From: Escherichia coli
Lineage (GTDB): Bacteria; Pseudomonadota; Gammaproteobacteria; Enterobacterales; Enterobacteriaceae
NCBI RefSeq assembly: GCF_041248615.1
Contig: NZ_CP158426.1
DNA length: 64,000 nt
Direction: 5' to 3' (one strand)
Shown here: positions 6,697 through 64,000 of the stretch, piece by piece
Layout: each line of letters begins with the position of its first letter
How positions within the stretch are numbered: the stretch's first letter is position 1
Translations under genes and position numbers: made by a program
Notes under the pieces: generated by a model
What the model was told of the DNA's origin: nothing
Seen by the model: the letters and a program-made list of their open reading frames with translations, nothing else
Databases searched by the model: none

Positions 6697-6835
6697 ATCA
6701 GAAATAACGGAAATCATTAAAAATGTAAAAGCAGATCCTGATTGACCGGGATCTGCTTATTGTATTGAGAAGTATTACCATTTTTCTGTTATTATCAATC
6801 GGAAAGTATCTAAAAATATTTGGCCCCAAATAATT

Positions 6836-32389: not shown

Positions 32390-33442
32390 ATGGGAATTAG
32401 TGTTCGAGTCTTGCAAGCAAATCATGGTGATTGTTTCTTAGTTAGTTATAAGAGCTCAGATAGTGTTTACAACTTGCTAATTGATGGTGGTAATAGCGCC
32501 ACATTTATGTTTGGGGCTCAAGGGCGCTACAGTGGTGAGCTTAAATGTGTACTCGATGATTTGAAAAAAGAAGGTCAGAAAATTGACTTGGTTATCTTAA
32601 CCCATATAGATGATGATCATATCGGTGGTTTGCTTAGGGCTTTTGAAACACCAGGTTATCTATGCCAAATGGCTTCTTCTATCTGGTTTAATTCTTCAAG
32701 ATTTATCACCAAACATTTTAAGGTTGATGAAATTTCAGACAATGATGTCTGTCTTCAAAGTAACTCAACGCAGACAAGTGCTAGGCAAGGGAAGAAACTG
32801 GAAAACTTACTTGATGAAATCAATTGCGAACGGCAACCCATAGTTATTGCGGGGCAGAAGTTTACAAGGGGTCCGTTCACATTCACGATCTTATCCCCTG
32901 AAGAAGATAATCTACGTAGCCTTCTTCATAAGTGGCCAGATGAGCCAGATCCGGTTACGACATCCGGTGCTTCAAGGGATTATGGAATGAAATTTGAGGA
33001 TATTTTGTCTAATGATAAATTCCAGAGTGATCAATCTGTTTATAATGGTAGCTCAATTGCTTTCATCCTTGAAGCTGATGGTAAGGCTATGCTCTTTTTG
33101 GGCGATTCACATGATGAAAATATTGTCCGTAATTTACGATCTCTTGGTTTTAATGAAGGTAACAAGCTCAAACTCGACCTCGTGAAAATTTCTCATCATG
33201 GTAGCCAGTATAATACTAGCCCTGAATTTTTGTCGCTCATAGATGCGCAAAACTTCATTATATCCACTAATGGGAGTAAGCACGGACTTCCTGATAAGAG
33301 AACTATTGCACGGATTTTATCTTCAGGAGAAGGCAAAATCGGCTTCAATTATTCGCACATTATCCAGGAGATGCTTCACGAAAATGAGGTTCCATTGTAC
33401 TCTTCTCGCCTGGTAGCATTAAATGGAGAAATTAGGCTATAA
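32390..33442 (+). CDS. MBL-fold metallo-hydrolase (first gene of candidate defence operon)
   Basis: Motifs HGDCFLV...IDGG, LVILTHIDDDHIGG and KISHHGS are typical of the metallo-beta-lactamase fold; AGGAAA RBS before ATG 32390; stop overlaps next gene. Confidence 0.7.
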   Translation: MGISVRVLQANHGDCFLVSYKSSDSVYNLLIDGGNSATFMFGAQGRYSGELKCVLDDLKKEGQKIDLVILTHIDDDHIGGLLRAFETPGYLCQMASSIWFNSSRFITKHFKVDEISDNDVCLQSNSTQTSARQGKKLENLLDEINCERQPIVIAGQKFTRGPFTFTILSPEEDNLRSLLHKWPDEPDPVTTSGASRDYGMKFEDILSNDKFQSDQSVYNGSSIAFILEADGKAMLFLGDSHDENIVRNLRSLGFNEGNKLKLDLVKISHHGSQYNTSPEFLSLIDAQNFIISTNGSKHGLPDKRTIARILSSGEGKIGFNYSHIIQEMLHENEVPLYSSRLVALNGEIRL

Positions 33443-34727: not shown

Positions 34728-35262
34728 AGAATTTGATTTGGAATTTCTTAAATCTAGATTTTCTGATGCAGATTTCTATTTTTTTGTTTCTAATGATGAC
34801 TCATCTTATATTTCATGCGTAGCATGCTATTGTGAGAGCGCTAATTACGTGGTTGCGAATTGGACAGCGATTCAGAATTATTTATCTGCTTACTACCAAC
34901 CGAAGGATGAATTAGCTCTTTGGAATATATATTTAGTTTTCTTTTGTTCCGAAAAATTACCGATTTGGGATAAGTACCTTATAGATAATGATAAGTATTC
35001 TGTCAGAAAATTAATTATTGACGGGTTAACTACTCTGCCAAGTATTTCCGAAACTGTAACTTTTCTGAACAATCATCTGCTAGGCGCAGACCTAGAATTA
35101 ACTGAAATAGAGGAGAAGAAGGAGATAGAGTTATCATTAATTGAGTATATAAGTGGAACTCCTTTAGATTCAAAGGTTGAGTCGAGAGATGAGCGTATGA
35201 GCAGAATTGATAAAATTATTAATCTAGTGAGTTCAAATAAAAATGAAAATAAAAAAAGTTGA
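34711..35262 (+). CDS. Small protein (183 aa) of unknown function, translationally coupled (middle component?)
   Basis: ORF overlaps upstream gene by 17 nt and downstream gene by 20 nt; AT-rich; no recognised motif. Confidence 0.5.
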   Translation: MNLLNKEFDLEFLKSRFSDADFYFFVSNDDSSYISCVACYCESANYVVANWTAIQNYLSAYYQPKDELALWNIYLVFFCSEKLPIWDKYLIDNDKYSVRKLIIDGLTTLPSISETVTFLNNHLLGADLELTEIEEKKEIELSLIEYISGTPLDSKVESRDERMSRIDKIINLVSSNKNENKKS

Positions 35263-38200
35263 AATAGAAGGCTTTCGAGCATACAGATTCAAGGAAGATG
35301 GTACTTTCGATTTTACAAATAAAGATGATACGCCATCCAATTTTGTAGCGATCTATGCACCCAATGGCTTTGGAAAAAGTTCATTCTATGATGCGGTTGA
35401 ATGGGCTATTACTCATAATTTAGATAGATTTGCGGGTGAATATAATAAAAAAAATTATGAGCAAGCTGCCAGGAGCACGAAAGAGGACGGTGTTGCACAA
35501 AAAATACTACGTAATAAAGATGTACCAGACAATATTCCTACTCGTGTAACAGTTTTCACTACTTTACCAACTCCATTCGAACAAAGTTTAGGAACAGTTC
35601 GTTCTGATTCTAGAGATATAAGAATCGGCGAGAATAAAAATAAAATCAATGGCTATTTTAGAAAAGTGGTTCTTAGTCAAGATGAAATAGACCGTTTTTT
35701 AAAAGAAGCAAAGCCGCAAGATCGTTATAAGATGTTTATGGAGAGTTTTGGAGGTGAATGGGAAAAGGCGAGACAAGAGCTAACTATACTATTGAATGAC
35801 AATAAGGCGGTTTTGTTAAATCTCGAAAAAAACAAAAATGAACTTCAGGAACAACTAGATCAGCCTGTTGATGCGTCAACATTCATACAATTTAATAAAA
35901 TAGCATCTGAACTTGTAGCAGAAGGTGAAAGTTTACCATTAGTAGATGAAACAACTATAGTTAATACACAGCATGAGCTTTTGGAAAAAATAATCACAAG
36001 AAGTCACGAAATAAATTTTTCCTTAAACAAGAAAAAAATATTGAGAGATTCGATTTCTGAGTATATTTTAAAATTTCCTGATATCAGTTTTCGTACAACC
36101 CAGATTATCGAGAAAAAGAATAGACTAGAAAAAATAAATAAAGGGATAGAAGATGTCGGTCGTTATAAGACATTTCAGTCTACTCTTGAAAAACTGACTA
36201 TCGAAAAGAAAAAGATAAGTCAGAGCTTAAATTTTATAGAAGAATTAGATGGTTTATCCCAAGAGTTTTTAAGCTTGGAATTTAACTTGGAATCAGCTCG
36301 AAAGAAACATAGAGAGATTTCATATAATTATGAAAATGAAAAAACTCTCCTTGATAATTTATTCCAAACAAGAAACCAAAATGATGCTGATTTATCTTCA
36401 ATTGACAAGCGATGCTTATCTATACGTTCTACGTTAGAAAACGCTACGGTTACTTATTCTAATATATCTAATATACAAAATAAAATTTTAAATATAGTTT
36501 CTACGCAAACAGAATTAGAGCACAAACTTAATCAAGTTAGATCCGAATACCAAAAAAACAAATCCGAATTAAACAAAGTATCAGATTTAACAATAACCGC
36601 CAAATCATTACTTTCATCAGACTTAAGTCTAATTGATTTATCTTCAGATTTATTAAAAGAACTAAACAACTTATCGCAAGAACTAAATATATTGGTCCTA
36701 CATGATCAATCAATTCATAACACACAAGAATCTCTTTCTGCACAAATGGGAGTTCACGAACGTCTAATTGCATCGGGCCTTGAGTACTTAAGTTTATGGC
36801 CGACTAATATATGTCCTTTATGTCACAAGCCGCATGACTCTGAGTCCTCTCTTAGAGAACAAGTAACAAATACTGACGTAATATCCATGCTTAGTAAAGA
36901 GAATGCAGCTAAGCTCGAGATATCCTCAAAACGGCGGTCAGAGTTAAATGGCAAGATAGAATCCATCGTACAGAAAGCCCTTGAAATTAAAATGAGTAAA
37001 CTTGAGGTATTAAGTAAAAAGGTCAATCAACAAGGAAATGAGATACATCGAGAAGAACAGCACTATACAGCTCTTTTAGCAGAAAAACAGTCTGTCCAAA
37101 ATCAGTTAAACGAGTTGCAGAAGGCTGTAGCTGGACTAACTAAAGATGAATTATTAGCTCGCTTAGATGCTGAACTTAAAGAATTAGAGGCCAAGAAAAA
37201 TGAAGTGATAAAAAACAAGCTGACCTTGACGAAAAATATTAACGTTAAAAGAACGTTGATTACAGAGTTAAGTGGGGCGATCAATTTACTTAATACGCAA
37301 ATTCATGAAATGATGTCATCATCTAACTATTTAAAAACAAAAGCTTACTCTGAAGAAAATGGCTTGTCATCGGAGTTTTTGAAAGAACATTATGATGATA
37401 AACGCCATTTTTACCTTAAAAATATAAATGGACTCAATTTTGAGATTAATAATATTACCAGCCAATTAAATGATCTTCAGAAAGCTATGATAGCCGATGA
37501 AATGTGGCTGGATTATGAAGAAATGATTTCTGAAAAAGAGAATTTCGAGGATTATATTTCTAAATCAGAAGCGGTTTTACAATCTTATTCATCATTATTA
37601 AAGCAGCATTTTGAACTACCAAAATATGAATCTTTAGTTGAATTGAAAGATTTCCTGATAAGCTCACTTGATAAAGAAACTAGGCTTTATAATGGTCTAG
37701 AGGAACGGCTTGGAAAATATAATTTATTATCAGAACTTTTGAAAACAGCAGAGTCGTTTGTAAAAAGTATTAAGTTGCAGAATGATATTAATGAAACCTT
37801 AGGTCTTATAGAAATAAGAAAAGAAGTTGATTTAGCTCTGACTAAGGAACGAAATCAAGTAATAGAGGAACTTAGAAACTTGATAAAATCTTTCTTTTAT
37901 GAGGAACTCATTAATTCTATTTATAAGAGAATAGATCCACATCCATCACTTAAGAAAGTGGTGTTTCGCCCAGATTTTGACTCATCAGATAAACCTGGTC
38001 TTAATATAGTTGTCAGTGATGAAAAAGGTGATATGGTATCTCCAATATTATTCTTTAGTGCAGCGCAATTAAATATTCTAAGCCTTAGTGTCTTTTTAGC
38101 AAGTGCTTTGCATGCAAAAGATGATAATGGAAATGTAATTGATGTGATTATGATTGATGATCCAATTCAATCAATGGATTCAATTAATATCCTATCCACA

Positions 38201-38380
38201 ATTGATCTTCTTAGAAGTATTACCGTTAGATTCAACAAACAAATAATAATATCAACACATGACGACAATTTCTTTGGCTTGCTCCAACGTAAAATCCCTT
38301 CGGAAATATTGGGTGCCAAGTTTCTTAAATTGGAGAAATTTGGGGTTGTAGTGCCTGTTGATGATTTAAATAATACATGA
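35243..38380 (+). CDS. Rad50/SbcC/SMC-like ABC ATPase with central CxxC zinc hook (LmuB-like?)
   Basis: N-terminal Walker A (VAIYAPNGFGKSSFYD), Q-loop (VLSQDEI), long coiled-coil middle with CPLC at residues 524-527 of 1045 (nt 36812..36823), C-terminal signature-like FSAAQ, Walker B VIMIDDP, D-loop SMD and H-loop ISTHD. Confidence 0.8.
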   Translation: MKIKKVEIEGFRAYRFKEDGTFDFTNKDDTPSNFVAIYAPNGFGKSSFYDAVEWAITHNLDRFAGEYNKKNYEQAARSTKEDGVAQKILRNKDVPDNIPTRVTVFTTLPTPFEQSLGTVRSDSRDIRIGENKNKINGYFRKVVLSQDEIDRFLKEAKPQDRYKMFMESFGGEWEKARQELTILLNDNKAVLLNLEKNKNELQEQLDQPVDASTFIQFNKIASELVAEGESLPLVDETTIVNTQHELLEKIITRSHEINFSLNKKKILRDSISEYILKFPDISFRTTQIIEKKNRLEKINKGIEDVGRYKTFQSTLEKLTIEKKKISQSLNFIEELDGLSQEFLSLEFNLESARKKHREISYNYENEKTLLDNLFQTRNQNDADLSSIDKRCLSIRSTLENATVTYSNISNIQNKILNIVSTQTELEHKLNQVRSEYQKNKSELNKVSDLTITAKSLLSSDLSLIDLSSDLLKELNNLSQELNILVLHDQSIHNTQESLSAQMGVHERLIASGLEYLSLWPTNICPLCHKPHDSESSLREQVTNTDVISMLSKENAAKLEISSKRRSELNGKIESIVQKALEIKMSKLEVLSKKVNQQGNEIHREEQHYTALLAEKQSVQNQLNELQKAVAGLTKDELLARLDAELKELEAKKNEVIKNKLTLTKNINVKRTLITELSGAINLLNTQIHEMMSSSNYLKTKAYSEENGLSSEFLKEHYDDKRHFYLKNINGLNFEINNITSQLNDLQKAMIADEMWLDYEEMISEKENFEDYISKSEAVLQSYSSLLKQHFELPKYESLVELKDFLISSLDKETRLYNGLEERLGKYNLLSELLKTAESFVKSIKLQNDINETLGLIEIRKEVDLALTKERNQVIEELRNLIKSFFYEELINSIYKRIDPHPSLKKVVFRPDFDSSDKPGLNIVVSDEKGDMVSPILFFSAAQLNILSLSVFLASALHAKDDNGNVIDVIMIDDPIQSMDSINILSTIDLLRSITVRFNKQIIISTHDDNFFGLLQRKIPSEILGAKFLKLEKFGVVVPVDDLNNT

Positions 38381-53106: not shown

Positions 53107-55032
53107 CTAAAAGTTCAGTAACGAGGGATGATCCTCTTTACCTGCACCTGCACCTGCACCTGCACCTGCACTTGTTGTTGTGTGTTTCTCGTCCGGCTTG
53201 TCAAAAAAGAGATCGGGTTGTGTTGTCGTGATAACTGATGTTGATGACGGTCCGGATGACATTTCTTCCTCGTCAAAATTCAGGGCAATGTTGACTCTTG
53301 CGGCGGTGGCGGCAACAGCGGGCGATACGGCACAGATCGCCAGTTCCCTTTTTTTAACCCTGATGGGAGAAATTAGTGAAGCAGAGGGGAGGGCTTTGGT
53401 GGTGAATATAAAACTGACAAAATCAGGCAGGTTCAGCACCATATTACTGTCGATAAAGAAACGCTCGGCCTGCCTGATGGTGCGTTCACTATCGATAGTC
53501 TCTGTCAGCACCGCATCTGTTTTGGCTTTGCGGACTTCGTCATCGACTAATATGGTGCCTGACATTCTTGCCACCCAGTCAGCGGTATCAGGGTCCATGA
53601 CACGATAAACCAGCTTGAATTTGGCATTCTCCACAACTGCACCCACCACGGCATCGCTTTTCAAATCCGCCGGGCAATCTTTTAAATCGGCAATGGATTG
53701 GTGGTCCATAATAATGTGTACACCTTTATCCCGTGCCGCACCTAAGCCTTCCAGCGCAGGCTTGGATAAATGGTATTTCAGTTCGGAAAGGTAAATAGCA
53801 ATAGGGCGGGGTGTGTGGTTTACCCGATCGCGCCTTTCTGCCAGCTGGTACAGGCGAACCAGCAGCATGCGCTGAGCGGTAATAATTTTGCTGTTGCGCA
53901 TCGAGCCAATCACATAGCAGCAACCACCGTTATCAAATATTGTATTGAGGGAAAATCCTGCCGGTGCATTGATGGCATTGAGTAAGGCCAGCTCCTCAAT
54001 TTTCCCGAAAAAGGCTTTTATCTTATCAGCGATACTTTGGACGTATTCCCCGTTATACACATCCCGAATGGTTGAGGTCGTATTACGGGCGACAAATTGT
54101 GCAGCTATTCGGGCTGCTTTGCGATCGTCAATGCGATAAAAGTCAGACTCTTGTCCTTTCTCTGCCAGACTGAAACCCGCGACAAAAAGTTCTTCCAGTT
54201 CATCAGCGGTGATATCGTTAATCAGGTTTAGCTGGTATGCCTGTTTCCTCAGGTCAATTAGGGCAAAGGATTTCCCTGCATCCTCGCAGGCTTTCCGGTA
54301 AAGGTGTGGGGCCCACTCATCATCTTTGGGGTCCATAACAAATACGCCTTCACCGGCCAAAATACTCTGATAAAGTAATATCCCGGTGGCCACCCCTTTA
54401 CCGGCCCCCGTGGTCCCGATGATATCGGCATGTTGTTTTTGCCAGTCTTTTAACGGCAGGTACATCGGCTGTTTCATTCTGTTCATGCCGATAAAAATAC
54501 CTTTACTCAGGTTAATATAATCCTCCGGGTTATAGTGCAATGTTTCCGGTAGCAGCGATTTCACCGTTCGGACATCAGTACGTAATTCCCTTTCCAGAGT
54601 GGTTTTTCTGACGAACCGACTTTTTACTTTATCGAGTTCAGGTGTTAACACCCTGCGCAGAAGAATATGGAAAACAAAACCGGCTGCGGTAGAGGTAATC
54701 AGTATCAGCCAGGAGAGGACAGTATTGCTGGTGGCTATCTTTATTCGGTATATCCATTGAAATAATTCGTTCACCACGGGCGCTATTGTGCCAAACAAAA
54801 AGCACAGTATGGAAAAAACTATCACCAGCTTTTTCCATAAAGGGGCTTTGAGTCGTTCATCGCTTTTCATCGACGCGAAGAATGGCATGGTCAGCCCTGA
54901 GAATAGCGCCAAAATAGGTTGATGCTGGTGCATAAAAACGAGCAGTCCCAGCATGCCGTCCACTATCGGTGATAGTGAAACGATCAGCTTATTTAACACC
55001 ATAATGCTTCCTTTATCGGCCATTCGCCCCAC
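53107..55032 (-). CDS. virD4: Type IV coupling protein (VirD4/TraG-like ATPase)
   Basis: N-terminal hydrophobic segments, Walker A IIGTTGAGKGV, DPK motif (VFVMDPKDDEW); C-terminal (Ala-Gly)5 tail. Confidence 0.75.
   Translation of the reverse strand: MGRMADKGSIMVLNKLIVSLSPIVDGMLGLLVFMHQHQPILALFSGLTMPFFASMKSDERLKAPLWKKLVIVFSILCFLFGTIAPVVNELFQWIYRIKIATSNTVLSWLILITSTAAGFVFHILLRRVLTPELDKVKSRFVRKTTLERELRTDVRTVKSLLPETLHYNPEDYINLSKGIFIGMNRMKQPMYLPLKDWQKQHADIIGTTGAGKGVATGILLYQSILAGEGVFVMDPKDDEWAPHLYRKACEDAGKSFALIDLRKQAYQLNLINDITADELEELFVAGFSLAEKGQESDFYRIDDRKAARIAAQFVARNTTSTIRDVYNGEYVQSIADKIKAFFGKIEELALLNAINAPAGFSLNTIFDNGGCCYVIGSMRNSKIITAQRMLLVRLYQLAERRDRVNHTPRPIAIYLSELKYHLSKPALEGLGAARDKGVHIIMDHQSIADLKDCPADLKSDAVVGAVVENAKFKLVYRVMDPDTADWVARMSGTILVDDEVRKAKTDAVLTETIDSERTIRQAERFFIDSNMVLNLPDFVSFIFTTKALPSASLISPIRVKKRELAICAVSPAVAATAARVNIALNFDEEEMSSGPSSTSVITTTQPDLFFDKPDEKHTTTSAGAGAGAGAGKEDHPSLLNF
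53141..53170. repeat. Hexanucleotide repeat (CCTGCA)x5 inside the 3' end of the T4CP gene
   Basis: cctgca repeated 5 times in frame, encoding AGAGAGAGAG at the protein C-terminus. Confidence 0.95.
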
Positions 55033-56410: not shown

Positions 56411-56806
56411 TTAATGTGAAAAATAAATATAGGTATCGCTACACGTCAGGCACTGAGTTGCAGGTTGATATTCAATAACACCATTTGCGCCATGCTGGCG
56501 AAGCCAGCTTGTTGCAGTAAAGAATGCTGTGCCTGATGGTGCAGCAACAACAATACGCGTCGAATGCGCAACTGCGTAAAATACGTCGGGGGTCCAAAGT
56601 GTCTCGTTAAACTGCGTTGAGTGAACGGACAATAACCACTTCCCATTAACGATTGGGGAAGGATTAATAACGGGGGTGTCATTCCATTGCGATAAATTGA
56701 TATTCACTGACTCGCCCGATTTATCCCATTCAACAGATACCGGTGGGGGTGGTGACGAACAGCCGGTAAGCACCATTAAAAATAACAGTATATTGATGGT
56801 TTTCAT
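56411..56806 (-). CDS. Lipoprotein of unknown function in T4SS operon
   Basis: Lipobox LTGC after signal peptide (MKTINILLFLMVLTGCSSPP); start overlaps virB11 stop. Confidence 0.5.
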   Translation of the reverse strand: MKTINILLFLMVLTGCSSPPPPVSVEWDKSGESVNINLSQWNDTPVINPSPIVNGKWLLSVHSTQFNETLWTPDVFYAVAHSTRIVVAAPSGTAFFTATSWLRQHGANGVIEYQPATQCLTCSDTYIYFSH

Positions 56807-57849
56807 TATGCTTTCATCTCCTCGAAGAAGGCATTACGGTGCAGTGGCCGGAAATAGATATCATTCATTCGGCGCACGTTGCCGTCTAAATCAATACTGA
56901 CAATAACATCCAGACTGTCCAGCACTTTGCGTAACATAAACGTGTAGGGCAGCCGGGCGCATTGTGGGTTTTCATAACAGCGAGTAATAAAACCGTCTAC
57001 CGCTTCTATTGCTGAACCCGCATGCAGGGAAGTCATACTGCCTTCATGGCCGGAGCCGGTTATTTTGAGAAAATCCCAGGCTTCACCACCGCGCACTTCG
57101 GTTAACAATATACGGTCGGGGTTCATGCGATAATTCCAGCGCAGAAGACTGGCTGGCGTCACAATCGAGCCTTTTTCATCTGCTGATTCGGACGGATAGA
57201 AGAGGTGGACATAGTTTTTATGAACAAAAAAGGTGATTTCCGGATTATCTTCAATGGTCGTAATACGCAAATGGCGAGGAATAAAACCAATCAGCATCTT
57301 CATGTAGGTTGTTTTCCCGGTACCGGTTTCCCCGGCCACCGCGATAGTTTTACCGTACTCCACGCACTTCTCCATAAAGCGCGGGATATCTTTGGCGGTA
57401 TACAGGCTCAACAATTCCTGATCGTGCGTCTGGGTGGTTTCTGAGCCCGTCACCCTGTTATAAAAACCGGCGTCGATATAGCTCTGGTGGGGAATTTGTA
57501 CCTGTGACGGCTTTCGGATAGTAATGGAGACGGTGTTGCGCTCACAGGCCGGAGGGACAATAACCTGACAACGTTCACCGGATTCCAGCGTGGCTGACAG
57601 CCCCGGTTTGATATCTTCAATATTGTCGCAGTGATGCTTTGCCAGGCATCTGGCGAAGTTGTAGCACCCCTCATAATCCAGCGAAACACTGTGCAGCTCC
57701 CAGATACCATTAATTTTGGTAAATAGCTCGCCCGGGCGGTTGACGGCGATTTCTGTTAGTCCAGGATGAGCAATAAAATCGCCAAAAAATCGCTGTGTAT
57801 AGCGATCGAGAGAGATGTTTTTCATGTGATATCCTTGTATCGGATACAT
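56806..57849 (-). CDS. virB11: VirB11-family T4SS ATPase
   Basis: Walker A GETGTGKTT, Walker B-like RILLTEVRG, His box GSMTSLHAG; 347 aa. Confidence 0.85.
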   Translation of the reverse strand: MYPIQGYHMKNISLDRYTQRFFGDFIAHPGLTEIAVNRPGELFTKINGIWELHSVSLDYEGCYNFARCLAKHHCDNIEDIKPGLSATLESGERCQVIVPPACERNTVSITIRKPSQVQIPHQSYIDAGFYNRVTGSETTQTHDQELLSLYTAKDIPRFMEKCVEYGKTIAVAGETGTGKTTYMKMLIGFIPRHLRITTIEDNPEITFFVHKNYVHLFYPSESADEKGSIVTPASLLRWNYRMNPDRILLTEVRGGEAWDFLKITGSGHEGSMTSLHAGSAIEAVDGFITRCYENPQCARLPYTFMLRKVLDSLDVIVSIDLDGNVRRMNDIYFRPLHRNAFFEEMKA

Positions 57850-57862: not shown

Positions 57863-58870
57863 ATGTCGAAGACGAAAGTACTGTTCGCTTATTGCCATGA
57901 ACTCGGGCGCTGTTTGTCCATTGATGAAGCGCGAATGGAATTTTTTTCCAGAAAGCCGGAAGAAAGGAAGCGGTTCACTTTTTCATGTAGCGATCGCAAC
58001 TGTGATGTCACCATTAGCGGTGTTAACTATCACGTCAAAGCTGAAGATGGTGAGAAATTCAAGGCTGCGCACTTCCGTTCACCTCATCCTCACAAGTTCG
58101 GATGTGAATGGCTCGAATTCACCGAGGATGCGGATCAGGACCGGCGTCCAGACGAGTCAGAGGCTGATTTCACAGAACGAAAAGCAAAGCAAAAGCTGAC
58201 GGACTATATCAACTGCTTTGACCCTTCAATAGATGATCCTGATGGCGAACCATCCGATCCCGTGAAGCTTGTTACGCCTGTTCACACAAGAAAAACTGTC
58301 GGGGATGATGATAAAACGGGTACAAATGAAGAGCCCCGCTGGAGTCGCTACACGCGAACCAACCAGCTTCAGCGACTTATCGACACATGGCAGGAAGCGA
58401 AAGAAACGCTGCCTCAGGATGAGTTCCGGGCGTTGAGACTCAGGATCATGCACCATGATCAGGTCTATCTACATGAATATATAACGCATATACAGCGTGG
58501 ATTGGCTAATCCGTATTCGGGCGTCATCTATGGTGGTGGGACCCTAATGCATCGGTATGGTCGGGGTTTTCTGATTAATTTCTTTGATAAACATGAGGGG
58601 AAGCCTGTTCGCCTGTATGTCAGTAAAGATCTGATGGCGAAAGGACGGTTTGGTCATTATATCGATGAGATTCTGGACACTAAAAACGTCAGATATTTCC
58701 GTATATTTTTACTCAATCCGGTTGTTTCCGAACGGGAAAACAGCACAGGAAAAAGCGTTATCAACCTTGAAATATCAAAGCTGCGTCAACTGGCTATTTA
58801 CTACGAACTGAACTCCAGCAGAGAAGATGAATCTTCATCGGTGGAGACGGAGGGGGAAAGTCCGGCGTAG
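57863..58870 (+). CDS. Hypothetical protein (335 aa) encoded antisense inside the T4SS operon
   Basis: Only long ORF on either strand across 57860..58800; acidic stretches; no recognised domain. Confidence 0.45.
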   Translation: MSKTKVLFAYCHELGRCLSIDEARMEFFSRKPEERKRFTFSCSDRNCDVTISGVNYHVKAEDGEKFKAAHFRSPHPHKFGCEWLEFTEDADQDRRPDESEADFTERKAKQKLTDYINCFDPSIDDPDGEPSDPVKLVTPVHTRKTVGDDDKTGTNEEPRWSRYTRTNQLQRLIDTWQEAKETLPQDEFRALRLRIMHHDQVYLHEYITHIQRGLANPYSGVIYGGGTLMHRYGRGFLINFFDKHEGKPVRLYVSKDLMAKGRFGHYIDEILDTKNVRYFRIFLLNPVVSERENSTGKSVINLEISKLRQLAIYYELNSSREDESSSVETEGESPA

Positions 58871-59187
58871 CGGGCTAATGTTGTCACAAGAATGAGTATA
58901 TCGGTGACGTCAGGCAGCGATATCTGCTTATGTGCCAGCCGGATATCGTCCGGGGAAAAAGGCGGTGCATCCAAAGGGCCTTCACTGATGGTGATACAGA
59001 ACGGTTGCTCTTCTCCTGAGTCAATACTGAGTTCTATCAATGCGCCCCCGGCACGATAGCATGTCATGACTATTCTTCTGATTCCGGTAAGGTGTGACAG
59101 TAAGTCGTTGACGACAGCGTTGCTGAAATCGTCCCTTACGATGACGTCTGTCGCCGTAACACCAAACAAAAACTTTCGATTACTCAC
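58801..59187 (-). CDS. Hypothetical protein (128 aa) downstream of virB10
   Basis: ORF start overlaps virB10 stop by 8 nt, suggesting co-transcription; no recognised motif. Confidence 0.35.
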   Translation of the reverse strand: MSNRKFLFGVTATDVIVRDDFSNAVVNDLLSHLTGIRRIVMTCYRAGGALIELSIDSGEEQPFCITISEGPLDAPPFSPDDIRLAHKQISLPDVTDILILVTTLARYAGLSPSVSTDEDSSSLLEFSS

Positions 59188-60430
59188 TCTTCATCCTCAG
59201 CGTGTAGATGCCTGAAAAATCAATATCCTGCCCTGTGACCAGGTTGATGATTTCACCCTGATTTTTGTAGAGCGTCGGTGGGATATTAATGCTGTTTTCC
59301 AGCGTGGTACGTGCCATATCCGCCATAGCCTGACGGCTGTTTTCTGTATAGTCGGTATTCCGATCTTTCTGACCGGCGCTGTTGGATGCCCATGCCCCAA
59401 TATCAGGGATCATACCGACCAGTAATGCACCTCCAAATCGCTCCCTGAAATGCGAGTCTATCCAGCCATCAACGCCAGCCTCGCCCAGTTCTCCGGCAGC
59501 ATTCGTATCGACCAGCGGAATATCAAGGAAAGGGGGCTGGCGGGTACGCAGTTTCGTGATGATGATGAATGCGCGTCCCTGTCCATGCGTCATTCCTGTT
59601 TCTGCACCAGTCTGGTACATCCCCGTGGCGGTGGTCCCTTTTTCTATCAGCTTTGTATTACCGCTGGCGCTCCAGATGTCTTCGGCGATCGTGCAGCGGA
59701 TTTTTCCAGCCCGATCTGAGACAAAACGGTAATCCAGTGAGCAGGGAATAGCGGTATTTTCCGGCACGTACAGATCGGGATTATAAGGAATTCGCCGGAC
59801 CGCTGTCGGGGACTGTTCCGGCTGTGGCGACGAGGTGTTTAGCGGCTGACCGGTATCAGAATATTGTGTCTCTGACGGCTGTCTGGCTGAGGATGCCTGC
59901 GTCATTTCCTGATACCGGGTCCGTACCGGATTTCGTACCGCTGAACCTGAACCCTCCCGGCGCACCAGAAAACGGGCTTTATCTAAGTCGGGCAGAGCCT
60001 CCGATCCGTTGGGTGTCGTACTACCAGGGTTGTTGTCCGCCGGTTCTGGTGTTTTCGCGTCGATATAGTGCGTACCCAGATCGGTACGCTGTCGAGAATC
60101 GGTCCGATCTGTCGGGGCCACAGTTTCCTGAGGCTTTTCTTTACCTGGCTGCCAAAGAAGATTGTGGTATATCCAGTTACCCCCCCACGCCAGTGCAATC
60201 AGGGCAACGGCAGCGAATGCCAGAAAAGCGGTGGCTTTCCCCTGCTGGCGCTTTTTCAGTTTATTGACAGCCGGCTGTATTGGATCGTTATTGTCATCAT
60301 CCTGCCAGGTGTGAAGCACAGCTTCACGCTTTGCGCGGGCCTCGCGCTCAAGCGCAGCAATATCATCATCCTTCTGTGTCGGACAGGACCTGGATTCATC
60401 TGGCACAGGATGCAGATGTTCGTCATTCAT
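59180..60430 (-). CDS. virB10: VirB10/TrbI-family T4SS protein
   Basis: N-terminal cytoplasmic/TM segment, Pro-rich linker, C-terminal VirB10-type domain (…GAETGMTHGQGRAFIIITKL…VDGWIDSHF…). Confidence 0.8.
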   Translation of the reverse strand: MNDEHLHPVPDESRSCPTQKDDDIAALEREARAKREAVLHTWQDDDNNDPIQPAVNKLKKRQQGKATAFLAFAAVALIALAWGGNWIYHNLLWQPGKEKPQETVAPTDRTDSRQRTDLGTHYIDAKTPEPADNNPGSTTPNGSEALPDLDKARFLVRREGSGSAVRNPVRTRYQEMTQASSARQPSETQYSDTGQPLNTSSPQPEQSPTAVRRIPYNPDLYVPENTAIPCSLDYRFVSDRAGKIRCTIAEDIWSASGNTKLIEKGTTATGMYQTGAETGMTHGQGRAFIIITKLRTRQPPFLDIPLVDTNAAGELGEAGVDGWIDSHFRERFGGALLVGMIPDIGAWASNSAGQKDRNTDYTENSRQAMADMARTTLENSINIPPTLYKNQGEIINLVTGQDIDFSGIYTLRMKSE

Positions 60431-60449: not shown

Positions 60450-61349
60450 TTAATTGGTTGCGGTTTTTACCACTCGCTCAACTTGCGGGGAGACTGTGGC
60501 ACCATCTGCGACCTGAACCCTGCCGAAACCACGATTTTCCAGGCCGACCACAGCGCCACCGGAACGGAGGACCAGACGGGGGGTAACTTCCTGAATAACC
60601 AGTACGGTGAAGTTGCCTTTCCTGCGGACACTGCTGTTAACCACATGCTCCTGGCCGTTTAGCTCTTTTGTCAAAGAGGGAATGGATTTGGCTGGGGAGA
60701 AGCCCACGAACGTAAAGCGACCATCGTCATAGGCGAAGTCCGGAACGATACGTGTGCTATTGCTCCCCGGATATTTGAGATAGTCCCAGTTTCGTGGCGT
60801 CTGCGCGGCGTTAAGAGCCTGCTGGATATCGGCCTGCTGTTGTTTCTGCTCCCGTTCCCGCGCTTTGGTTGTGACTTCACGGCCCGATTTTTCGTGTGCT
60901 TCATCGGGATAGCGATAACTCACCTGAAAAGCAGGCTGCTGCGATGATTTTTCATCGATGACGTTTAGCTCGACGTTATACAGCCGCCGAGTGGTAACGA
61001 TTAGCATGTTGGTATGCCAGTCGTGACTGTTGGGAGGAATGACCACCTGCGCTGTATTACCGTCCACTCCGGGGGCACCCTGAATCAGGGCTACCGGGCG
61101 GATACTGACCCGGTTTGCGTCTGTTGTGGCTTCCCATGCGTCCTCAAAACCTGGTTTAGCACTGATAACCGCTTCGTCATTGTCAAAGATGAGCGTGGTT
61201 ACGAAACCGGGTCGGGTATTGACGACAGTGACGTTAAACGGGTTATAGACAACCTGCTGGAGACGGGCGTCGTAGCGGCTTGCTTGTGGTATTGCAGCAC
61301 CCCAGGCTATACCGCACATCGCCAGTGCGAAAAGGATGATAATTTTCAT
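60450..61349 (-). CDS. virB9: VirB9/TrbG-family T4SS outer-membrane component
   Basis: Signal peptide and VirB9-like domains; position between virB8 and virB10. Confidence 0.75.
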   Translation of the reverse strand: MKIIILFALAMCGIAWGAAIPQASRYDARLQQVVYNPFNVTVVNTRPGFVTTLIFDNDEAVISAKPGFEDAWEATTDANRVSIRPVALIQGAPGVDGNTAQVVIPPNSHDWHTNMLIVTTRRLYNVELNVIDEKSSQQPAFQVSYRYPDEAHEKSGREVTTKAREREQKQQQADIQQALNAAQTPRNWDYLKYPGSNSTRIVPDFAYDDGRFTFVGFSPAKSIPSLTKELNGQEHVVNSSVRRKGNFTVLVIQEVTPRLVLRSGGAVVGLENRGFGRVQVADGATVSPQVERVVKTATN

Positions 61350-62032
61350 TATTCAACTCCTCTGATTTCACGATCTGCCTGCCAACTTGTCACCGTAAAA
61401 CCGAACGGGTTAACTTCCCGCTCTGTATCGCTCATTTCCTTACTTGGGTCGGAGTGGAATGTCAGGTGGGCATCCCAGTATTCTGTACGCGTACTGCTAT
61501 CAGCGAGGCGGCGGATAGTTTTTTTGTAACGGAGGGTGGCGACTTTATCGGGGGCAGTGCCTTCGGTGATCTGATTAGACAGGATGTCGATATGTACGGT
61601 GTGGGCCTCATTCTGGTACACCTTATCCGGGGCGTCTTTTCCTGAATAAAGTGCCAGATAATCATCATTAACCTGAGGGCTGTTATAGACCTGTACCGTT
61701 GAATAATCGTCCTGTAGGGCAGGGTAAATGTAACGTTCACGCACTCTGACGTAACTTGAGGTCATCGCCTTCTGATAAGCTTCTTCCGCTGTCAGACTCG
61801 TTTGTGACGCTCGGGTGACGTGTTCCAACCGTCCGGTATGATTATCAACAGCATACAGCTCAATAACTGTCTGTTTCAGCGGTAATATCAGCACCACAGT
61901 GGTGAGTGCCAGTATGGCAATGAGTAAGCCCGCGCCACCAACCATAAATCCCGCCTTCGTGGCGCGTTTGTCCCGCTCAATCATTTTCTGCTCAAAGGTG
62001 CGGGAATCAGCAATGATTGACTGTTCACTCAT
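61349..62032 (-). CDS. virB8: VirB8-family T4SS protein
   Basis: Single N-terminal TM helix (GFMVGGAGLLIAILALTTVVLIL) followed by a periplasmic domain; position. Confidence 0.75.
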   Translation of the reverse strand: MSEQSIIADSRTFEQKMIERDKRATKAGFMVGGAGLLIAILALTTVVLILPLKQTVIELYAVDNHTGRLEHVTRASQTSLTAEEAYQKAMTSSYVRVRERYIYPALQDDYSTVQVYNSPQVNDDYLALYSGKDAPDKVYQNEAHTVHIDILSNQITEGTAPDKVATLRYKKTIRRLADSSTRTEYWDAHLTFHSDPSKEMSDTEREVNPFGFTVTSWQADREIRGVE

Positions 62033-62162
62033 GATTGTTTAACTCCGCCATCATCTGAGGCGTGTTTACCGGGATGCCATTCCCACTAAAGGCCAGGGGA
62101 TGGGGTGACTGTGCACAGCCGTAAAGCGCGCACAGTAAAATCAGCGCAATCAAGCGTTTCAT
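62025..62162 (-). CDS. virB7: VirB7-like small lipoprotein (45 aa), absent from the ORF track
   Basis: Hand translation of minus strand: MKRLIALILLCALYGCAQSPHPLAFSGNGIPVNTPQMMAELNNHE; lipobox LYGC; stop overlaps virB8 start. Confidence 0.5.
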   Translation of the reverse strand: MKRLIALILLCALYGCAQSPHPLAFSGNGIPVNTPQMMAELNNHE

Positions 62163-62245
62163 GGGATGTTTCCTCAGTGGGTTGGATAGAGGGTAGTGTT
62201 AGCGCCGGGGGGATTGACGGAAATAGTATGCAAGGGATGACAAGT

Positions 62246-63310
62246 TTAACGATGAAATTTCTGAACGGTTGTTTCTCTTGATTTTGCCAGCCGTCGGGCC
62301 TCGTTCCTGGCGATCATTTGCTCAATGGCATACTTACGTGCCTGAGCAGCTCTGTATCCCGGGCCGCTGCCGGGTTTATCTGTACTGGCATCTCTCCATC
62401 CCTGAAGATTGTCCTGAATTGCGCGGTTTGTCTGCTTCCCGGCTCCTGCGGCTAATTTCCCTGCACCAAACGCCGCTGCGCCTATACCCACGGCGGACAG
62501 TCCCTGCATGGAGACAGTCGCTCCCGCCCCGGCTAGTGCTCCGGCCAGTTTTGCGGAAAGGTATACCATTATTGCCGCGCAGACCCCGGCGAGACAGACC
62601 TGAGCGCCTAGCTCCACAATATTAGATTGTGCAGATATTTGTGTGGCAATATCTAAGCGGGAGTTTAAATAATTAACGACCACTCGTAGCGACAATGCAG
62701 AAAACAGAACCGTTAATATGGCTGCGAAAATATTTTGCAGCCAGTTGTTAAACATGGGACGTAAAAAGCCATACATGAGACAAAAGATGAAAACGGGGGC
62801 TGTGATGCTGAGCAGCAAAACCATGACCTCTGCGATCATTGCAACAAAGGCTGTAATAGTCATTAAAACGAATATCCCAAGCCACACATAAAATTGAGCT
62901 GTGATGCCCTCGTCTTTTATGTACGTTGAATTATCCATGTCGTGTAACGTTTTGCCTAATACCTTCGCTTTATCCCATAAGCTATCCAGTAGTTGCCATA
63001 TATTATCGTTGCCGGAAAAGCCGTCTTTTAAGCCATTGATAGCGTCAATGACCCCGTCGAGATAACCGCTGACATTGGCCACAAAGGACAGGATGATGGC
63101 CATTCTTATGATGTCCCACATGACGTCCTCCATGGGTGCGGACAACTTACCTGCCAGGCTCTGGTATCCACGCCACATGATATAAAGTGTCGCTGACGTT
63201 GCCGCCAGTCCCAGCATCATGGCGGAGTATGACATCATCAGTCCCTTTGTTGCGTCGGTGACTCCCCCTATCAGGTGTTTTTCAACACCGATAAATACAC
63301 CACCAGGCAT
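62246..63310 (-). CDS. virB6: VirB6/TrbL-family T4SS inner-membrane protein
   Basis: 354-aa polytopic membrane protein with Gly/Ala-rich C-terminal region; position between eex and virB7. Confidence 0.75.
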   Translation of the reverse strand: MPGGVFIGVEKHLIGGVTDATKGLMMSYSAMMLGLAATSATLYIMWRGYQSLAGKLSAPMEDVMWDIIRMAIILSFVANVSGYLDGVIDAINGLKDGFSGNDNIWQLLDSLWDKAKVLGKTLHDMDNSTYIKDEGITAQFYVWLGIFVLMTITAFVAMIAEVMVLLLSITAPVFIFCLMYGFLRPMFNNWLQNIFAAILTVLFSALSLRVVVNYLNSRLDIATQISAQSNIVELGAQVCLAGVCAAIMVYLSAKLAGALAGAGATVSMQGLSAVGIGAAAFGAGKLAAGAGKQTNRAIQDNLQGWRDASTDKPGSGPGYRAAQARKYAIEQMIARNEARRLAKSRETTVQKFHR

Positions 63311-63320: not shown

Positions 63321-63548
63321 CTATGAATTCAGGTTGGGAGTGGGGGCATTTAACTGTTGAATCTGAAAATGAGCTTCATTGGCATTTTTACAGTTTTCAG
63401 AGGCATCGCCGGTTTTCAGGCATTTTTCATATACTGTTTTCAGCTCATCGGGATGATCTTTGTACCACTGGGTAGTTTTGGTTTCGTCTCTGCAGCCGCA
63501 AATGATGAGGAATAAAATGGACAGGAACGAAAGGGTTAATAAACGCAT
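63321..63548 (-). CDS. eex: Entry-exclusion-like lipoprotein between virB5 and virB6
   Basis: Start placed at MRLLTLSFLSILFLIICGC (lipobox); small lipoprotein at the position where IncN/IncW systems carry eex. Confidence 0.5.
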   Translation of the reverse strand: MRLLTLSFLSILFLIICGCRDETKTTQWYKDHPDELKTVYEKCLKTGDASENCKNANEAHFQIQQLNAPTPNLNS

Positions 63549-63559
63549 GTGAAACTCCT

Positions 63560-64000
63560 TTAACGGTTTAAATCGGAGGTTGGTGCAGTTAACTGCTGCT
63601 GGTTCCACTGTTTGAGACGCTCATCCTCCAGCACTTTCCCGCGTTTTTCTGCCGCCTTCACACTCATTTCCCATTGATCAGTGAGCGTGTTCAGCATCAC
63701 TGATTTCAACTGAATACTGTTGGCAAGGTCCAGCGACTCCTTTGAGTCTTTAGAGAGTGCAATCCGGTTTGAAAGATTATTGATCTCACCCAATGTTTGG
63801 CTGACCTGATCCTGGATCTCGTCAGTCTGCTCAAACTGAATTGCCTTATTGATAACCTGTTGTTTGCAGATATCGGCATAGCTTCCGGACTGCGCCGCGT
63901 TGCACGTATCGAAAACCCGGTACTTTGCGTATAGCGCATCGAACTGCCCGGCGATGCCACCAGAAAGTAGCAGGTCGTTGAGTGTCTGGCCCGGCTTACG
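63560..64000 (-). CDS. virB5: VirB5-like T4SS minor pilin, partial (5' end beyond window)
   Basis: Minus-strand frame is open from window end to stop at 63560 (…GIAGQFDALYAKYRVFDTCNAAQSGSYADICKQQVINKAIQFEQ…); helical, Cys pair; position. Confidence 0.55.
   Translation of the reverse strand, partial: RKPGQTLNDLLLSGGIAGQFDALYAKYRVFDTCNAAQSGSYADICKQQVINKAIQFEQTDEIQDQVSQTLGEINNLSNRIALSKDSKESLDLANSIQLKSVMLNTLTDQWEMSVKAAEKRGKVLEDERLKQWNQQQLTAPTSDLNR

Follow-up and report, generated by a model that had tools for sequence, protein, structure and literature searches.

The virB6-virB8 interval and its 45-codon gene

Within the window, that is, the whole 64,000-nt stretch of Escherichia coli DNA that was analysed, a virB-type operon runs in the order VirB5-EexN-VirB6-45-aa protein-VirB8-VirB9-VirB10...VirB11. 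The island carrying this operon is rare, being present in 8 of 5,426 complete E. coli genomes, and it bears an insertion between virB10 and virB11, whose two ORFs gave no Pfam or PADLOC match. The features considered here are listed by position.

56411-56806, Cag12/CagT-family lipoprotein of 131 aa, located after virB11 in the same operon (PF13117, E=5.7e-19)
60450..61349, minus strand, virB9 (Pfam PF03524), whose C-terminal domain (CTD, residues 184-299) is the predicted binding partner in the AF2 fusion model
61349..62032, minus strand, virB8, directly downstream of the 45-aa gene (Pfam PF04335, E=2.1e-55)
62025..62032, minus strand, 8-nt overlap ATGAGTGA between the stop of the 45-aa gene and the start of virB8, read from the sequence as a putative site of translational coupling
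62025..62162, minus strand, 45-codon ORF for a probable VirB7-type lipoprotein precursor (RefSeq WP_172408797.1), supported by ORF scan and translation, the annotated CDS, dN/dS and a conserved slot
62043..62046, minus strand, GGAG within codons A40-E41, read 10 nt before the virB8 ATG and assigned by inference as the likely virB8 ribosome-binding site
62064..62072, minus strand, P31-V32-N33, the VirB7 'PVN(K)' VirB9-binding motif, here PVNT (alignments, PMC3093366, AF2)
62115..62117, minus strand, codon of Cys16, where lipidation is predicted and the mature protein of 30 aa begins, with Ala at +2 (PS51257, alignments)
62118..62162, minus strand, predicted signal peptide, residues 1-15, with n-region MKR, h-region LIALILLCAL and lipobox L-Y-G (PROSITE PS51257)
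62171..62175, minus strand, Shine-Dalgarno sequence GAGGA, 8 nt before the ATG of the 45-aa gene (sequence reading)
62246..63310, minus strand, virB6/trbL, directly upstream of the 45-aa gene (Pfam PF04610, E=1.2e-45)
63321-63608, EexN ORF between virB5 and virB6 (NF033894, E=2.6e-21)

The 45-codon ORF opens with the ATG at 62162, the earliest start codon past the upstream in-frame stop, and translates to MKRLIALILLCALYGCAQSPHPLAFSGNGIPVNTPQMMAELNNHE. Shine-Dalgarno-like AAGGA or AGGAA motifs occupy the corresponding place in its homologues. Its TGA (62027..62025) falls within the first codons of virB8, which starts at 62032..62030, so that 8 nt are common to both genes, and the identical overlap recurs in 37 of 66 related loci. 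An earlier note on this DNA had described the minus-strand ORF, with a hand translation identical to the computed one, as well as the shared 8 nt, and both descriptions hold. The same note called the gene unannotated, which was mistaken: RefSeq record NZ_LT599825.1 already contains it as CDS R2K29_RS09975 / WP_172408797.1, a 'hypothetical protein', and the copy in a related island is annotated as a 'putative periplasmic lipoprotein'.

No minus-strand promoter or terminator was found between the 45-aa ORF and its neighbours, and between virB6 and the ORF the Rfam scan returned no family; a reading as an RNA element was rejected, the sole Rfam match being a sub-threshold RsmY within virB6. The antisense ORFs at 61899-62042 and 62105-62281, both on the plus strand, were rejected as alternatives because the selection pattern matches the minus-strand frame.

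Lipoprotein features and probable relationship to VirB7

The PROSITE PS51257 pattern is satisfied by LYGC, with Cys16 as the lipobox cysteine and K2 and R3 in the n-region, which bears out the lipobox proposed by the earlier note. Cys16 is invariant in 16/16 and 43/43 relatives (alignments A1 and A2, respectively). In E. coli, the Lol rule directs lipoproteins with a +2 residue other than Asp to the outer membrane. The residue here is Ala, so that outer-membrane sorting of the 45-aa protein is predicted, as is its lipidation.

VirB7 precursors of 45-65 aa, with a mature part of about 30-45 aa, consist of a signal peptide, a lipobox and a short extended VirB9-binding segment with PVNK, in which Val and Asn are key (PMC3093366). 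The 45-aa precursor, with its mature part of 30 aa, falls within this size range, and its gene sits in a virB-type operon with virB6 on one side and virB8 on the other, as expected for the family. The spacing from Cys to Pro is 15 residues, inside the 13-18 range of the 56 motif-bearing loci of the slot survey described below. P31 and N33 are invariant in A1, the Asn is also invariant in A2 and in 74 paired rows, and V/I is conserved at the position between; relative to the family motif P-[VIL]-N-[KR], the fourth position is Thr and not Lys/Arg, so that the match is limited to the core P-V-N.

A word-indexed protein search retrieved only seven close relatives, and distant ones were therefore sought by tblastn on plasmids, exhaustive HMMER searching and synteny. 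The HMMER search yielded 55 representatives, mostly lipoproteins of 40-50 aa with a few longer proteins (up to 2,349 aa), which pass by degrees into forms that are TraN-like (CSSxxKPPPEP..VPVN) or Agrobacterium-like (CDGR..PIN). Against 177,635 PDB sequences, the family profile ranked TrwH, the VirB7 of R388, first (E=2.5e-3, then 7.4e-4) and TraN third (E=0.032); both alignments pass through the PVN motif, and these two are the only small PDB proteins aligned beyond the signal peptide. A comparison with TraN by hhalign gave a probability of 69.5% (E=4e-5). The lipoprotein signal peptide accounts for a large share of the family profile's score against TrwH and TraN, and the mature part alone, compared with composition-matched shuffles, reached only marginal values (p=0.015 for TraN and p=0.047 for TrwH).

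Searches with the single sequence and with curated models gave no direct family assignment. No PDB match was obtained by phmmer with the 45-aa protein, and no Pfam family was matched at E<=1, PF20898 (P_T4SS_TraN) included; the protein therefore lies outside that curated model, which 2 of the 43 relatives match weakly (E=0.0035), although it probably acts in the manner of a TraN. In NCBIfam, the sole matches were signal-peptide ones, to entericidin and to LvhB7 (NF041529), the latter scoring 14.4 bits against a cut-off of 70 and covering residues 1-20, the signal peptide only. Membership in EexN was rejected, as the 45-aa protein has no NF033894 match and the neighbouring ORF has one.

TraN of pKM101/R46 (IncN; PDB 2OFQ, 3JQO, 3ZBI) is a 48-aa lipoprotein encoded between virB6 and virB8 homologues, its gene overlaps the next one, and the R46/pKM101 order VirB5-Eex-VirB6-VirB7-VirB8 is that of the window. 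PVN stands 17 residues after the lipid-bearing Cys in TraN compared with 15 here, similarity outside the signal peptide and PVN is very low, and TraN continues from PVNK into TIPVD, whereas PVNT is followed here by PQMMAELNN, a short helix as predicted by AF2. TrwH of R388 (IncW; PDB 7O3J, 8RT4), the best PDB match, aligns from Met1 through EPVN; it has 47 aa, its stop overlaps the start of trwG (virB8), and the R388 gene order is again that of the window. It differs in its GTG start, in a tail KTVPVEIQRGAL in place of the acidic helix, and in residing on a MOBF plasmid and not a MOBC island. The synteny with IncN and IncW systems that the earlier note had suggested checking is thus present, with TraN in the R46 slot and TrwH in that of R388.

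Further relatives were found in IncX2/X3/X6 and IncX4-like plasmids by tblastn (most E values 1e-5 to 1e-3, 42-56% identity). These are PilX7 in the R6K pilX1-11 nomenclature, a name that tracks the virB numbering; they are 42-46 aa long, keep the C-x(14-15)-P[VI]N arrangement, have a shorter C-terminus than the window protein and are often absent from gene tables. Xanthomonas citri VirB7 (XAC2622) and other Xanthomonadales proteins combine a lipobox with an N-terminal extended (P/H)VN(R/H) segment that binds the VirB9 CTD (PMC3093366), and the Lysobacter, Dyella and Luteimonas loci fetched here read C-x(13)-KPVNR. Xanthomonadales VirB7, with 140-160 aa, has an N0 domain besides, which builds a further ring, and the window protein represents the minimal form.

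The closest described counterpart is ORF9 of pMET1, pCRY, HPI-ECOR31 (ICEEc1) and ICEKp1, likewise of 45 aa, located between virB6 and virB8 and belonging to the same T4SS lineage. Soler Bistué et al. (2008) proposed it as the VirB7 equivalent from synteny only, stating that no VirB7 homologue was present (PMC2262945). Plasmid-borne ORF9 (pCRY, pMET1 and other plasmids) is 77.8% identical to the window protein and has in common with it the lipobox, the tail PVNTPQ(I/M)MAELN(S/N)HE and neighbouring Cag12 and TrbM genes. Relative to ORF9, the copy in the window has diverged as an allele, with an LYGC lipobox and Met37, and sits on a different and rarer island with the virB10-virB11 insertion.

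A contact with VirB9 was modelled by AF2 on a single fused chain, mature peptide-(GGGGS)6-VirB9 CTD, in which the peptide is residues 1-29, using a 74-row paired alignment. The paired rows were built from the fetched loci; a homologue search with the VirB9 CTD gave mostly fragments, which were left out. Block-mean pLDDT was 73, 92 and 70 for residues 1-10, 11-20 and 21-30; the linker scored 42-46 and the CTD 94-97, and a beta-bridge was predicted immediately before V-N. In a control with permuted peptide columns, the same blocks fell to 53, 35 and 31 while the CTD was unchanged; this control is a stricter version, as the first permutation had retained the V-N adjacency by chance. A Foldseek PDB search with the fusion model returned CagX, TrwF and TraO, the matched chains being VirB9 homologues. 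The prediction places the PVN segment confidently beside the VirB9 CTD in a manner that depends on residue order, in a fused chain and with VirB7-VirB9 complexes within AF2 training, and it suggests that the 45-aa protein would bind VirB9 physically.

Lipobox, synteny, conservation, PVN, profile matches and AF2 agree with the VirB7-like lipoprotein gene overlapping virB8 that the earlier note had put forward, and we consider it very probable that this ORF codes for the VirB7 component of a conjugative T4SS of the P type (VirB/Trw/Tra-like), borne by an island in the chromosome of E. coli NRZ14408. It is unlikely that the product is instead a real small lipoprotein that occupies the virB7 slot as an analogue, not a homologue, serves elsewhere, for example in piloting, exclusion or pilus regulation, and does not bind VirB9. 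The missing matches to curated VirB7 models, the marginal similarity of the mature region to TraN and TrwH and the 2008 report of no homologue of published VirB7 proteins (PMC2262945) all lean that way. Against them stand the invariant Cys and P-V/I-N, spaced as in TraN and TrwH, the intermediate sequences that lead without a break to TraN-like and Agrobacterium-like VirB7s, the alignment past the signal peptide of TrwH and TraN alone among small PDB proteins, and an AF2 model that is confident only with residue order kept; an exclusion role, moreover, is already filled by the adjoining EexN gene.

Selection, the conserved slot and the second lipoprotein

The dN/dS of the 45-aa ORF against its homologues is 0.11-0.37 for the closer pairs. 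By tblastn, homologues were found in 317 plasmids, and all inspected records place the homologue between virB6 and virB8. The slot was then surveyed in 80 loci fetched by a VirB8 profile across bacterial genomes, in 77 of which the virB8 start could be placed. A lipoprotein ORF ends at the virB8 start in 66 of these 77 loci, and in 56 of the 66 P[VILM]N follows the Cys at a distance of 13-18 residues; of the 11 negative loci, two (L016 and L093) are filter misses. Control positions gave zero at each of four anchors and on the opposite strand, and 2/66 at the fifth anchor; the only further control signal, at the -1200 anchor, is a genuine EexN lipoprotein gene without PxN. Neither of the two observations that the earlier note had named as evidence against its proposal, a missing lipoprotein signal and a lack of conservation in homologous operons, was made. 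Length alone does not put a 45-codon ORF beyond chance, given that 9 kb contain 90 ORFs of 30 aa or longer; this one is raised above chance by purifying selection together with a lipoprotein ORF conserved at this exact place. Judged by these sequence comparisons, the 45-codon ORF is a genuine gene.

The operon also encodes the 131-aa Cag12-family protein. Cag12 is CagT, the lipoprotein that resembles VirB7 in the Cag system of H. pylori. CagT/Cag12 proteins are likewise outer-membrane lipoproteins of a T4SS core complex, and they have a larger, unrelated fold to which the 45-aa protein shows no similarity; a sequence search of the PDB with the Cag12 protein gave no match. The presence of such a lipoprotein here raises the alternative that it is the working VirB7-like component and that the 45-aa peptide is redundant or vestigial. 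This we regard as highly improbable, considering that the 45-aa ORF is under purifying selection, that it is kept where the Cag12 gene is absent, as in R46 and an IncX4-like plasmid (in which virB11 is directly followed by the coupling-protein gene), and that the pCRY/pMET1 family has kept both genes, a joint conservation that points to two roles rather than redundancy. The second lipoprotein could nevertheless have a share of the VirB7 role.

The reading as a chance ORF in the virB6-virB8 spacer, conserved merely through the virB8 ribosome-binding site, could draw on the abundance of short ORFs and on a 3' end that overlaps virB8 and its likely Shine-Dalgarno sequence, but it is effectively refuted by a dN/dS far below 1 across the entire ORF, by retention of the frame, the lipobox Cys and PVN despite synonymous sites that are saturated or nearly so (for most distant pairs, dS exceeds 1 or could not be computed), and by the absence of signal at most control anchors and on the opposite strand.

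Proposed role and significance

As a VirB7 subunit, the 45-aa precursor would be exported by Sec, receive a diacylglyceryl group at Cys16 and be processed by signal peptidase II; given Ala at +2, Lol would then deliver the lipoprotein to the outer membrane's inner leaflet. The mature 30-residue peptide would be extended and would wrap the beta-sandwich CTD of VirB9 through a segment centred on P31-V32-N33; in TraN, the corresponding Val (V33) is inserted between the two sheets of VirB9 and the Asn (N34) is hydrogen-bonded to the VirB9 backbone. Such wrapping would tether and stabilise the VirB7-VirB9-VirB10 outer-membrane core complex. The gene would be co-transcribed with virB6 and virB8, its overlap with virB8 would couple translation of the two, and this coupling would favour co-production of VirB7 and VirB8; the GGAG inside the 45-aa ORF likely serves as the embedded virB8 ribosome-binding site. 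By analogy with other VirB7 proteins, the 45-aa protein would be required for transfer, the 'essential' role that this family is given.

Apart from this general role, the post-PVN acidic helix PQ[IM]MAELN[NS]HE is conserved in the enterobacterial clade of the 45-aa protein, where it is predicted as helical by AF2 and replaces the K-T-[IV]-P-V tail of TraN and TrwH, and a Cag12/CagT-like lipoprotein always co-occurs with the 45-aa protein in the pCRY/pMET1/ICEEc1/ICEKp1 lineage. From these two observations, the outer-membrane core complex of the ICE and plasmid machines in this lineage could hold two lipoproteins and an extra layer. That the clade represents a structural VirB7 variant, with a two-lipoprotein complex intermediate between the minimal complex of R388/pKM101 and the expanded one of Cag, is a speculative suggestion to which we give a rather low probability; the conservation of the tail may instead stem from its coding sequence also containing the start codon of virB8 and the ribosome-binding site of that gene.

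The gene itself is ordinary, the role of a close homologue having been proposed in 2008 and the CDS being in RefSeq, and it leaves the understanding of T4SS biology unchanged. Its value lies mainly in annotation: VirB7-type genes, short and rapidly diverging, are routinely overlooked or labelled 'hypothetical' (TrwH of R388 and the IncX3, IncX6 and pMET1 homologues are missing from gene tables), and this clade escapes the curated Pfam and NCBIfam models. A simple rule, namely a lipobox Cys followed 13-18 residues on by P-[VI]-N in an ORF that ends at the virB8 start, recovers such genes with almost no false positives. As a probable VirB7 gene, the 45-codon ORF would complete the VirB1-11 set in the T4SS family responsible for mobilising the pCRY and pMET1 plasmids as well as two yersiniabactin islands, ICEEc1 and ICEKp1.

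The ORF, its signals and the overlap with virB8

The ORF opens at an ATG that is the earliest start codon downstream of the preceding in-frame stop, and the hand translation of the earlier note proved exact at 62025-62162 (minus strand). Its stop falls within the first bases of virB8, so that 8 nt, ATGAGTGA, are common to both genes, as had been read by eye. A GGAG inside the ORF appears, from its position, well placed to serve as the virB8 ribosome-binding site.

Features of the ORF and its operon
62025-62162, minus: VirB7-type ORF, ATG start, product MKRLIALILLCALYGCAQSPHPLAFSGNGIPVNTPQMMAELNNHE, 45 aa
62175-62171, minus: GAGGA, 8 nt upstream of the ORF ATG (sequence reading)
62046-62043, minus: GGAG within ORF codons Ala40-Glu41 (position relative to virB8)
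62032-62030, minus: virB8 ATG (sequence reading)
62027-62025, minus: ORF stop TGA, within the start of virB8
63321-63608, minus: EexN-family entry-exclusion lipoprotein gene, PGAP start ~63548 (NF033894, E=2.6e-21)
62246-63310, minus: VirB6/TrbL gene (Pfam)
61349-62032, minus: VirB8 gene (Pfam)
60450-61349, minus: VirB9 gene (Pfam)
59180-60430: VirB10 gene (Pfam)
56806-57849: VirB11 gene (Pfam)
56411-56806, minus: Cag12-family lipoprotein gene, 131 aa, MKTINILLFLMVLTGCSS... (PF13117, E=5.7e-19)
53107-55032, minus: VirD4 coupling-protein gene (name from RefSeq annotation)

The ORF had been described as unannotated, which did not hold: RefSeq carries it as the CDS R2K29_RS09975 (WP_172408797.1), labelled 'hypothetical protein', and it is therefore merely unnamed. 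Its counterpart in an 85%-identical island is labelled 'putative periplasmic lipoprotein'. Since 90 ORFs of 30 aa or longer were listed for the surrounding 9-kb stretch, a 45-codon ORF is by itself unremarkable, and the case for a gene depends on further evidence. Against homologues of other elements, the Nei-Gojobori dN/dS was 0.26-0.37 at dS 0.36-0.43, and several other pairs gave 0.11-0.24; these low values reflect purifying selection in the ORF frame. In homologues, a Shine-Dalgarno-like sequence lies at the same distance before the start. The Rfam search matched no family to the ORF, and a search for a minus-strand promoter or terminator between the ORF and virB6 or virB8 found none. An RsmY RNA candidate at 62345-62462 (minus), inside virB6, reached 20.6 bits where the gathering score is 57 (E=0.034) and is almost certainly a chance match.

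VirB7 signature and predicted pairing with VirB9

VirB7 proteins show very little conservation and are precursors of 45-65 aa, laid out as a signal peptide, the Cys of a lipobox and a short extended stretch with which they bind the C-terminal domain of VirB9 and which often carries PVNK, in which the Val enters between two VirB9 sheets and the Asn hydrogen-bonds the VirB9 backbone (Souza et al. 2011, PMC3093366). Judged by its sequence, the 45-aa window protein appears to fit this definition: the PROSITE lipoprotein pattern PS51257 recovers the lipobox claimed earlier (Cys16, LYGC, Ala at +2), and P31-V32-N33-T34 lies 15 residues past the Cys. M1, K2, I5, L13, C16, P31 and N33 are invariant in 16 relatives (down to 33% identity), and C16 and N33 only in 43 representatives. 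The synteny with IncN and IncW systems suggested in the earlier note holds as well. In R46/pKM101 (IncN) the order VirB5-EexN-VirB6-TraN-VirB8 is identical to that of the window, the 48-aa TraN having its PVN 17 rather than 15 residues past the Cys, while in R388 (IncW) the slot is filled by TrwH, whose stop overlaps trwG, the R388 virB8.

The single window protein matched no Pfam family and no PDB sequence, and in NCBIfam it matched LvhB7 over the signal peptide only, scoring 14 bits where the cut-off is 70. A profile built from 16 relatives placed TrwH (7O3J chain C) first among 177,635 PDB sequences (E=2.5e-3). With 43 representatives in the profile, TrwH was again first (E=7.4e-4) and third place went to TraN (3ZBI chain C; E=0.032); these were the only two whose alignment extended beyond the signal peptide and across the PVN motif. 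The lipoprotein signal peptide supplies most of this TrwH/TraN profile score; with the mature part only, tested against 5,000 composition-matched shuffles, p was 0.015 for TraN and 0.047 for TrwH. Comparison with TraN by hhalign gave 69.5% probability, and Pfam PF20898 (P_T4SS_TraN) was touched by only 2 of the 43 relatives. An exhaustive HMMER scan of 1.84 billion representatives returned 55 proteins at E<1e-3, mostly lipoproteins of 40-50 aa with a few longer, up to 2,349 aa, which form a gradient from enterobacterial C-AQ..PPVSG..PVN through TraN-like CSSTPPKPPEP..VPVN to second-Cys forms, CDGRL.PIN, that recall Agrobacterium VirB7. We read the relation of the window protein to TraN and TrwH as probably one of true but very diverged homology, mainly because of position, architecture and motif and less so because of alignment statistics; that a non-homologous lipoprotein with another role sits in the same slot seems to us quite unlikely.

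AlphaFold2 (AF2) was run on a construct of the mature peptide (residues 17-45), (GGGGS)6 and the cognate VirB9 C-terminal domain (CTD, residues 184-299), with a 74-row alignment in which each peptide was paired with the VirB9 of its own locus. In the control, the peptide columns of the same alignment were permuted identically in all rows, dispersing P, V and N.

AF2 confidence for the real peptide and the permuted control (regional values are block-mean pLDDT)
Residues 1-10: real 73, control 53
Residues 11-20 (GNGIPVNTPQ in the real peptide): real 92, control 35
Residues 21-30 (peptide end at residue 29): real 70, control 31
Linker: real 42-46, control 34-45
VirB9 CTD: real 94-97, control 91-96
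pTM: real 0.69, control 0.59

The real peptide was placed with high pLDDT and the permuted control was not, and the prediction is therefore order-specific, within the limits of a fused single chain, of confidence values without a pose and of AF2 training that included VirB7-VirB9 complexes. The real-peptide model has a beta-bridge just ahead of V-N and a helix over PQMMAELNN, and the five models are in agreement. Searched against the PDB, the fusion model matched VirB9-homologue chains at E 5e-8 to 1e-4: CagX, TrwF and TraO, as well as the C-terminal domain of Xanthomonas VirB9, whose structure was determined as a complex with VirB7. In TraN, a short strand joins a VirB9 sheet just before PVNK (PMC3093366), and the predicted placement is consistent with this description.

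Operon and island setting

The window is 100% identical to the E. coli NRZ14408 chromosome, NZ_LT599825.1 (window x = record x + 2,051,671), and the region was found in just 8 of 5,426 complete E. coli genomes. The RefSeq order runs AlpA, DUF2857, TraR, VirB1, VirB2, VirB3/4, VirB5, EexN, VirB6, the 138-nt CDS that is the ORF, VirB8, VirB9, VirB10, two hypothetical genes, VirB11, Cag12, TrbM/KikA, VirD4 and MobC. The EexN gene sits between virB5 and virB6, as eex does in R46/pKM101 and R388; because its RefSeq CDS is 228 nt, the GTG start at 63608 given by the ORF listing is probably too far upstream.

The Cag12/CagT-family gene lies directly after virB11, its start overlapping the virB11 stop. 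Plasmids of the pCRY/pMET1 type keep it, whereas R46, R388 and the IncX4-like plasmid lack it, and its 131-aa product had no sequence match in the PDB. Were this lipoprotein the functional VirB7, the 45-aa peptide would be redundant, but the small gene is kept under selection in relatives without Cag12, and we consider such a role very improbable.

An insertion of about 1.3 kb separates virB10 from virB11. It carries two ORFs, one of 335 aa on the opposite strand (57863-58870, plus) and one of 128 aa on the operon strand (58801-59187, minus), neither matching Pfam or PADLOC. The insertion, which the 85%-identical island of strain 2022H047 (locus L003) shares, may be a cargo or regulatory module within the T4SS operon; in pMET1/pCRY, virB10 directly overlaps virB11 (PMC2262945, Table 1). 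The VirD4-like protein (53107-55032, minus) ends in a simple repeat, …TTTSAGAGAGAGAGKEDH…, so that the gene contains a GA-dipeptide / GCNGGN DNA microsatellite. Elsewhere in the window, three tRNA-Asn genes adjoined by frameshifted integrase remnants and then an Rhs element (965-5273 and 5435-8650) form the classical island insertion hotspot at asn-tRNA, which here lacks an intact HPI. In the same island region, ~32390-38380 is a candidate anti-phage defence cluster: a ComEC/Rec2-like gene, then an 'ABC-three component system' pair and an AAA ATPase of 1,045 aa.

Conservation and standing of the VirB7 reading

Conservation in homologous operons, whose lack the earlier note had named as a refutation, was found on plasmids and across virB8 loci. 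By tblastn, the protein was matched in 317 plasmid records, including pCRY (Yersinia pestis), pMET1 (Klebsiella), many MOBC/MPF_T plasmids, IncX2/X3/X6 plasmids and an IncX4-like plasmid. The match lay between the VirB6 and VirB8 genes in all inspected records and ended a few bases inside virB8 in most, the IncX3 and IncX2 matches ending ~10 nt upstream. A VirB8-profile scan of one genome per species gave 80 loci, with the virB8 start placed by script in 77. A mechanical lipoprotein filter asked for K/R in the n-region, a hydrophobic h-region and [GAS]-Cys. It passed an ORF ending where virB8 starts in 66 of the 77 loci; the 8-nt overlap of the window ORF recurred in 37 of these, and 56 had P-[VILM]-N 13-18 residues past the Cys; two of the 11 negative loci were filter misses (L016, ORF present with LNGC; L093, a long Xanthomonad form). 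Control anchors at +700, +1500, +2500, -2200 and -3000 nt gave 0, 0, 0, 0 and 2 matches and the opposite strand 0, while at the -1200 anchor 36 of 71 loci yielded EexN, itself a genuine lipoprotein gene, with the PxN motif in none. Measured against these anchors, the conservation of the slot, together with the low dN/dS, refutes a chance ORF, whose likelihood we regard as negligible.

Several public gene tables omit VirB7-type genes: R388 (NC_028464.1, locus L015) lacks TrwH at 7156-7408 (GTG start), and the homologues of IncX6, IncX3 and IncX2 (L007, L011, L012) and pMET1 (NC_010726.1) are also unlisted. Because the PLSDB table is incomplete, some of these omissions may be table artefacts. 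In Citrobacter freundii pIMP-CF-15-127 (CP068026.1, L013), a stretch without annotation, 2501-2803, holds a VirB7-like ORF that continues in frame into VirB8, …IIQELTPMSELTAKAL…, unlike its near-identical relative L005, where the ORF ends in HV-stop; the difference comes either from a small indel or a sequencing error, or from a natural fusion of VirB7 to VirB8. The slot lipoproteins of four Brevundimonas / Caulobacterales loci (L079, L086, L088, L092) are 63-78 aa long, with C-D-G-x(3-4)-R-R-P-A-N-P replacing P-V-N and extra cysteines, one near the C-terminus (…GGCA), a pattern that recalls the disulfide-forming Cys in Agrobacterium VirB7.

Slot, lipobox, PVN motif, profiles and AF2 model support the earlier claim of a VirB7-like lipoprotein gene, and a four-step VirB7 mechanism is the most likely reading, one that we hold with high confidence. 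The product would be exported by Sec, lipidated at Cys16, cleaved by signal peptidase II and, with Ala at +2, sorted to the outer membrane by Lol. The 30-residue lipopeptide would then wrap the VirB9 C-terminal beta-sandwich via its PVN segment, and this wrapping would anchor and stabilise the VirB7-VirB9-VirB10 outer-membrane core complex. Expression would occur within the virB operon, the 8-nt overlap coupling it to virB8. The post-translational steps are drawn by analogy from TraN, TrwH and VirB7.

The VirB7 identity of the gene is correct, yet already known in substance. pMET1, pCRY, HPI-ECOR31 (ICEEc1) and ICEKp1 were described as lacking a recognisable VirB7 (Soler Bistué et al. 2008, PMC2262945), and ORF9 of that lineage, a homologue of the window protein (77.8% identical; tblastn matches H11 and H52), was proposed as its equivalent; the IncX homologues already bear the name pilX7 by position. 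It is conceivable, though doubtful, that the acidic helical tail of the clade and the co-conserved Cag12-type lipoprotein point to a two-lipoprotein core complex between minimal and Cag-type machines, and conservation of the tail may equally be due to the embedded virB8 ribosome-binding site. The ORF contributes an ordinary part to a known machine, its existence confirmed and its VirB7 interpretation supported in all but its being unannotated. What is added here to the 2008 proposal is support at the level of motif, profile and structure prediction, which suggests that ORF9 is a true VirB7, more than a positional substitute.
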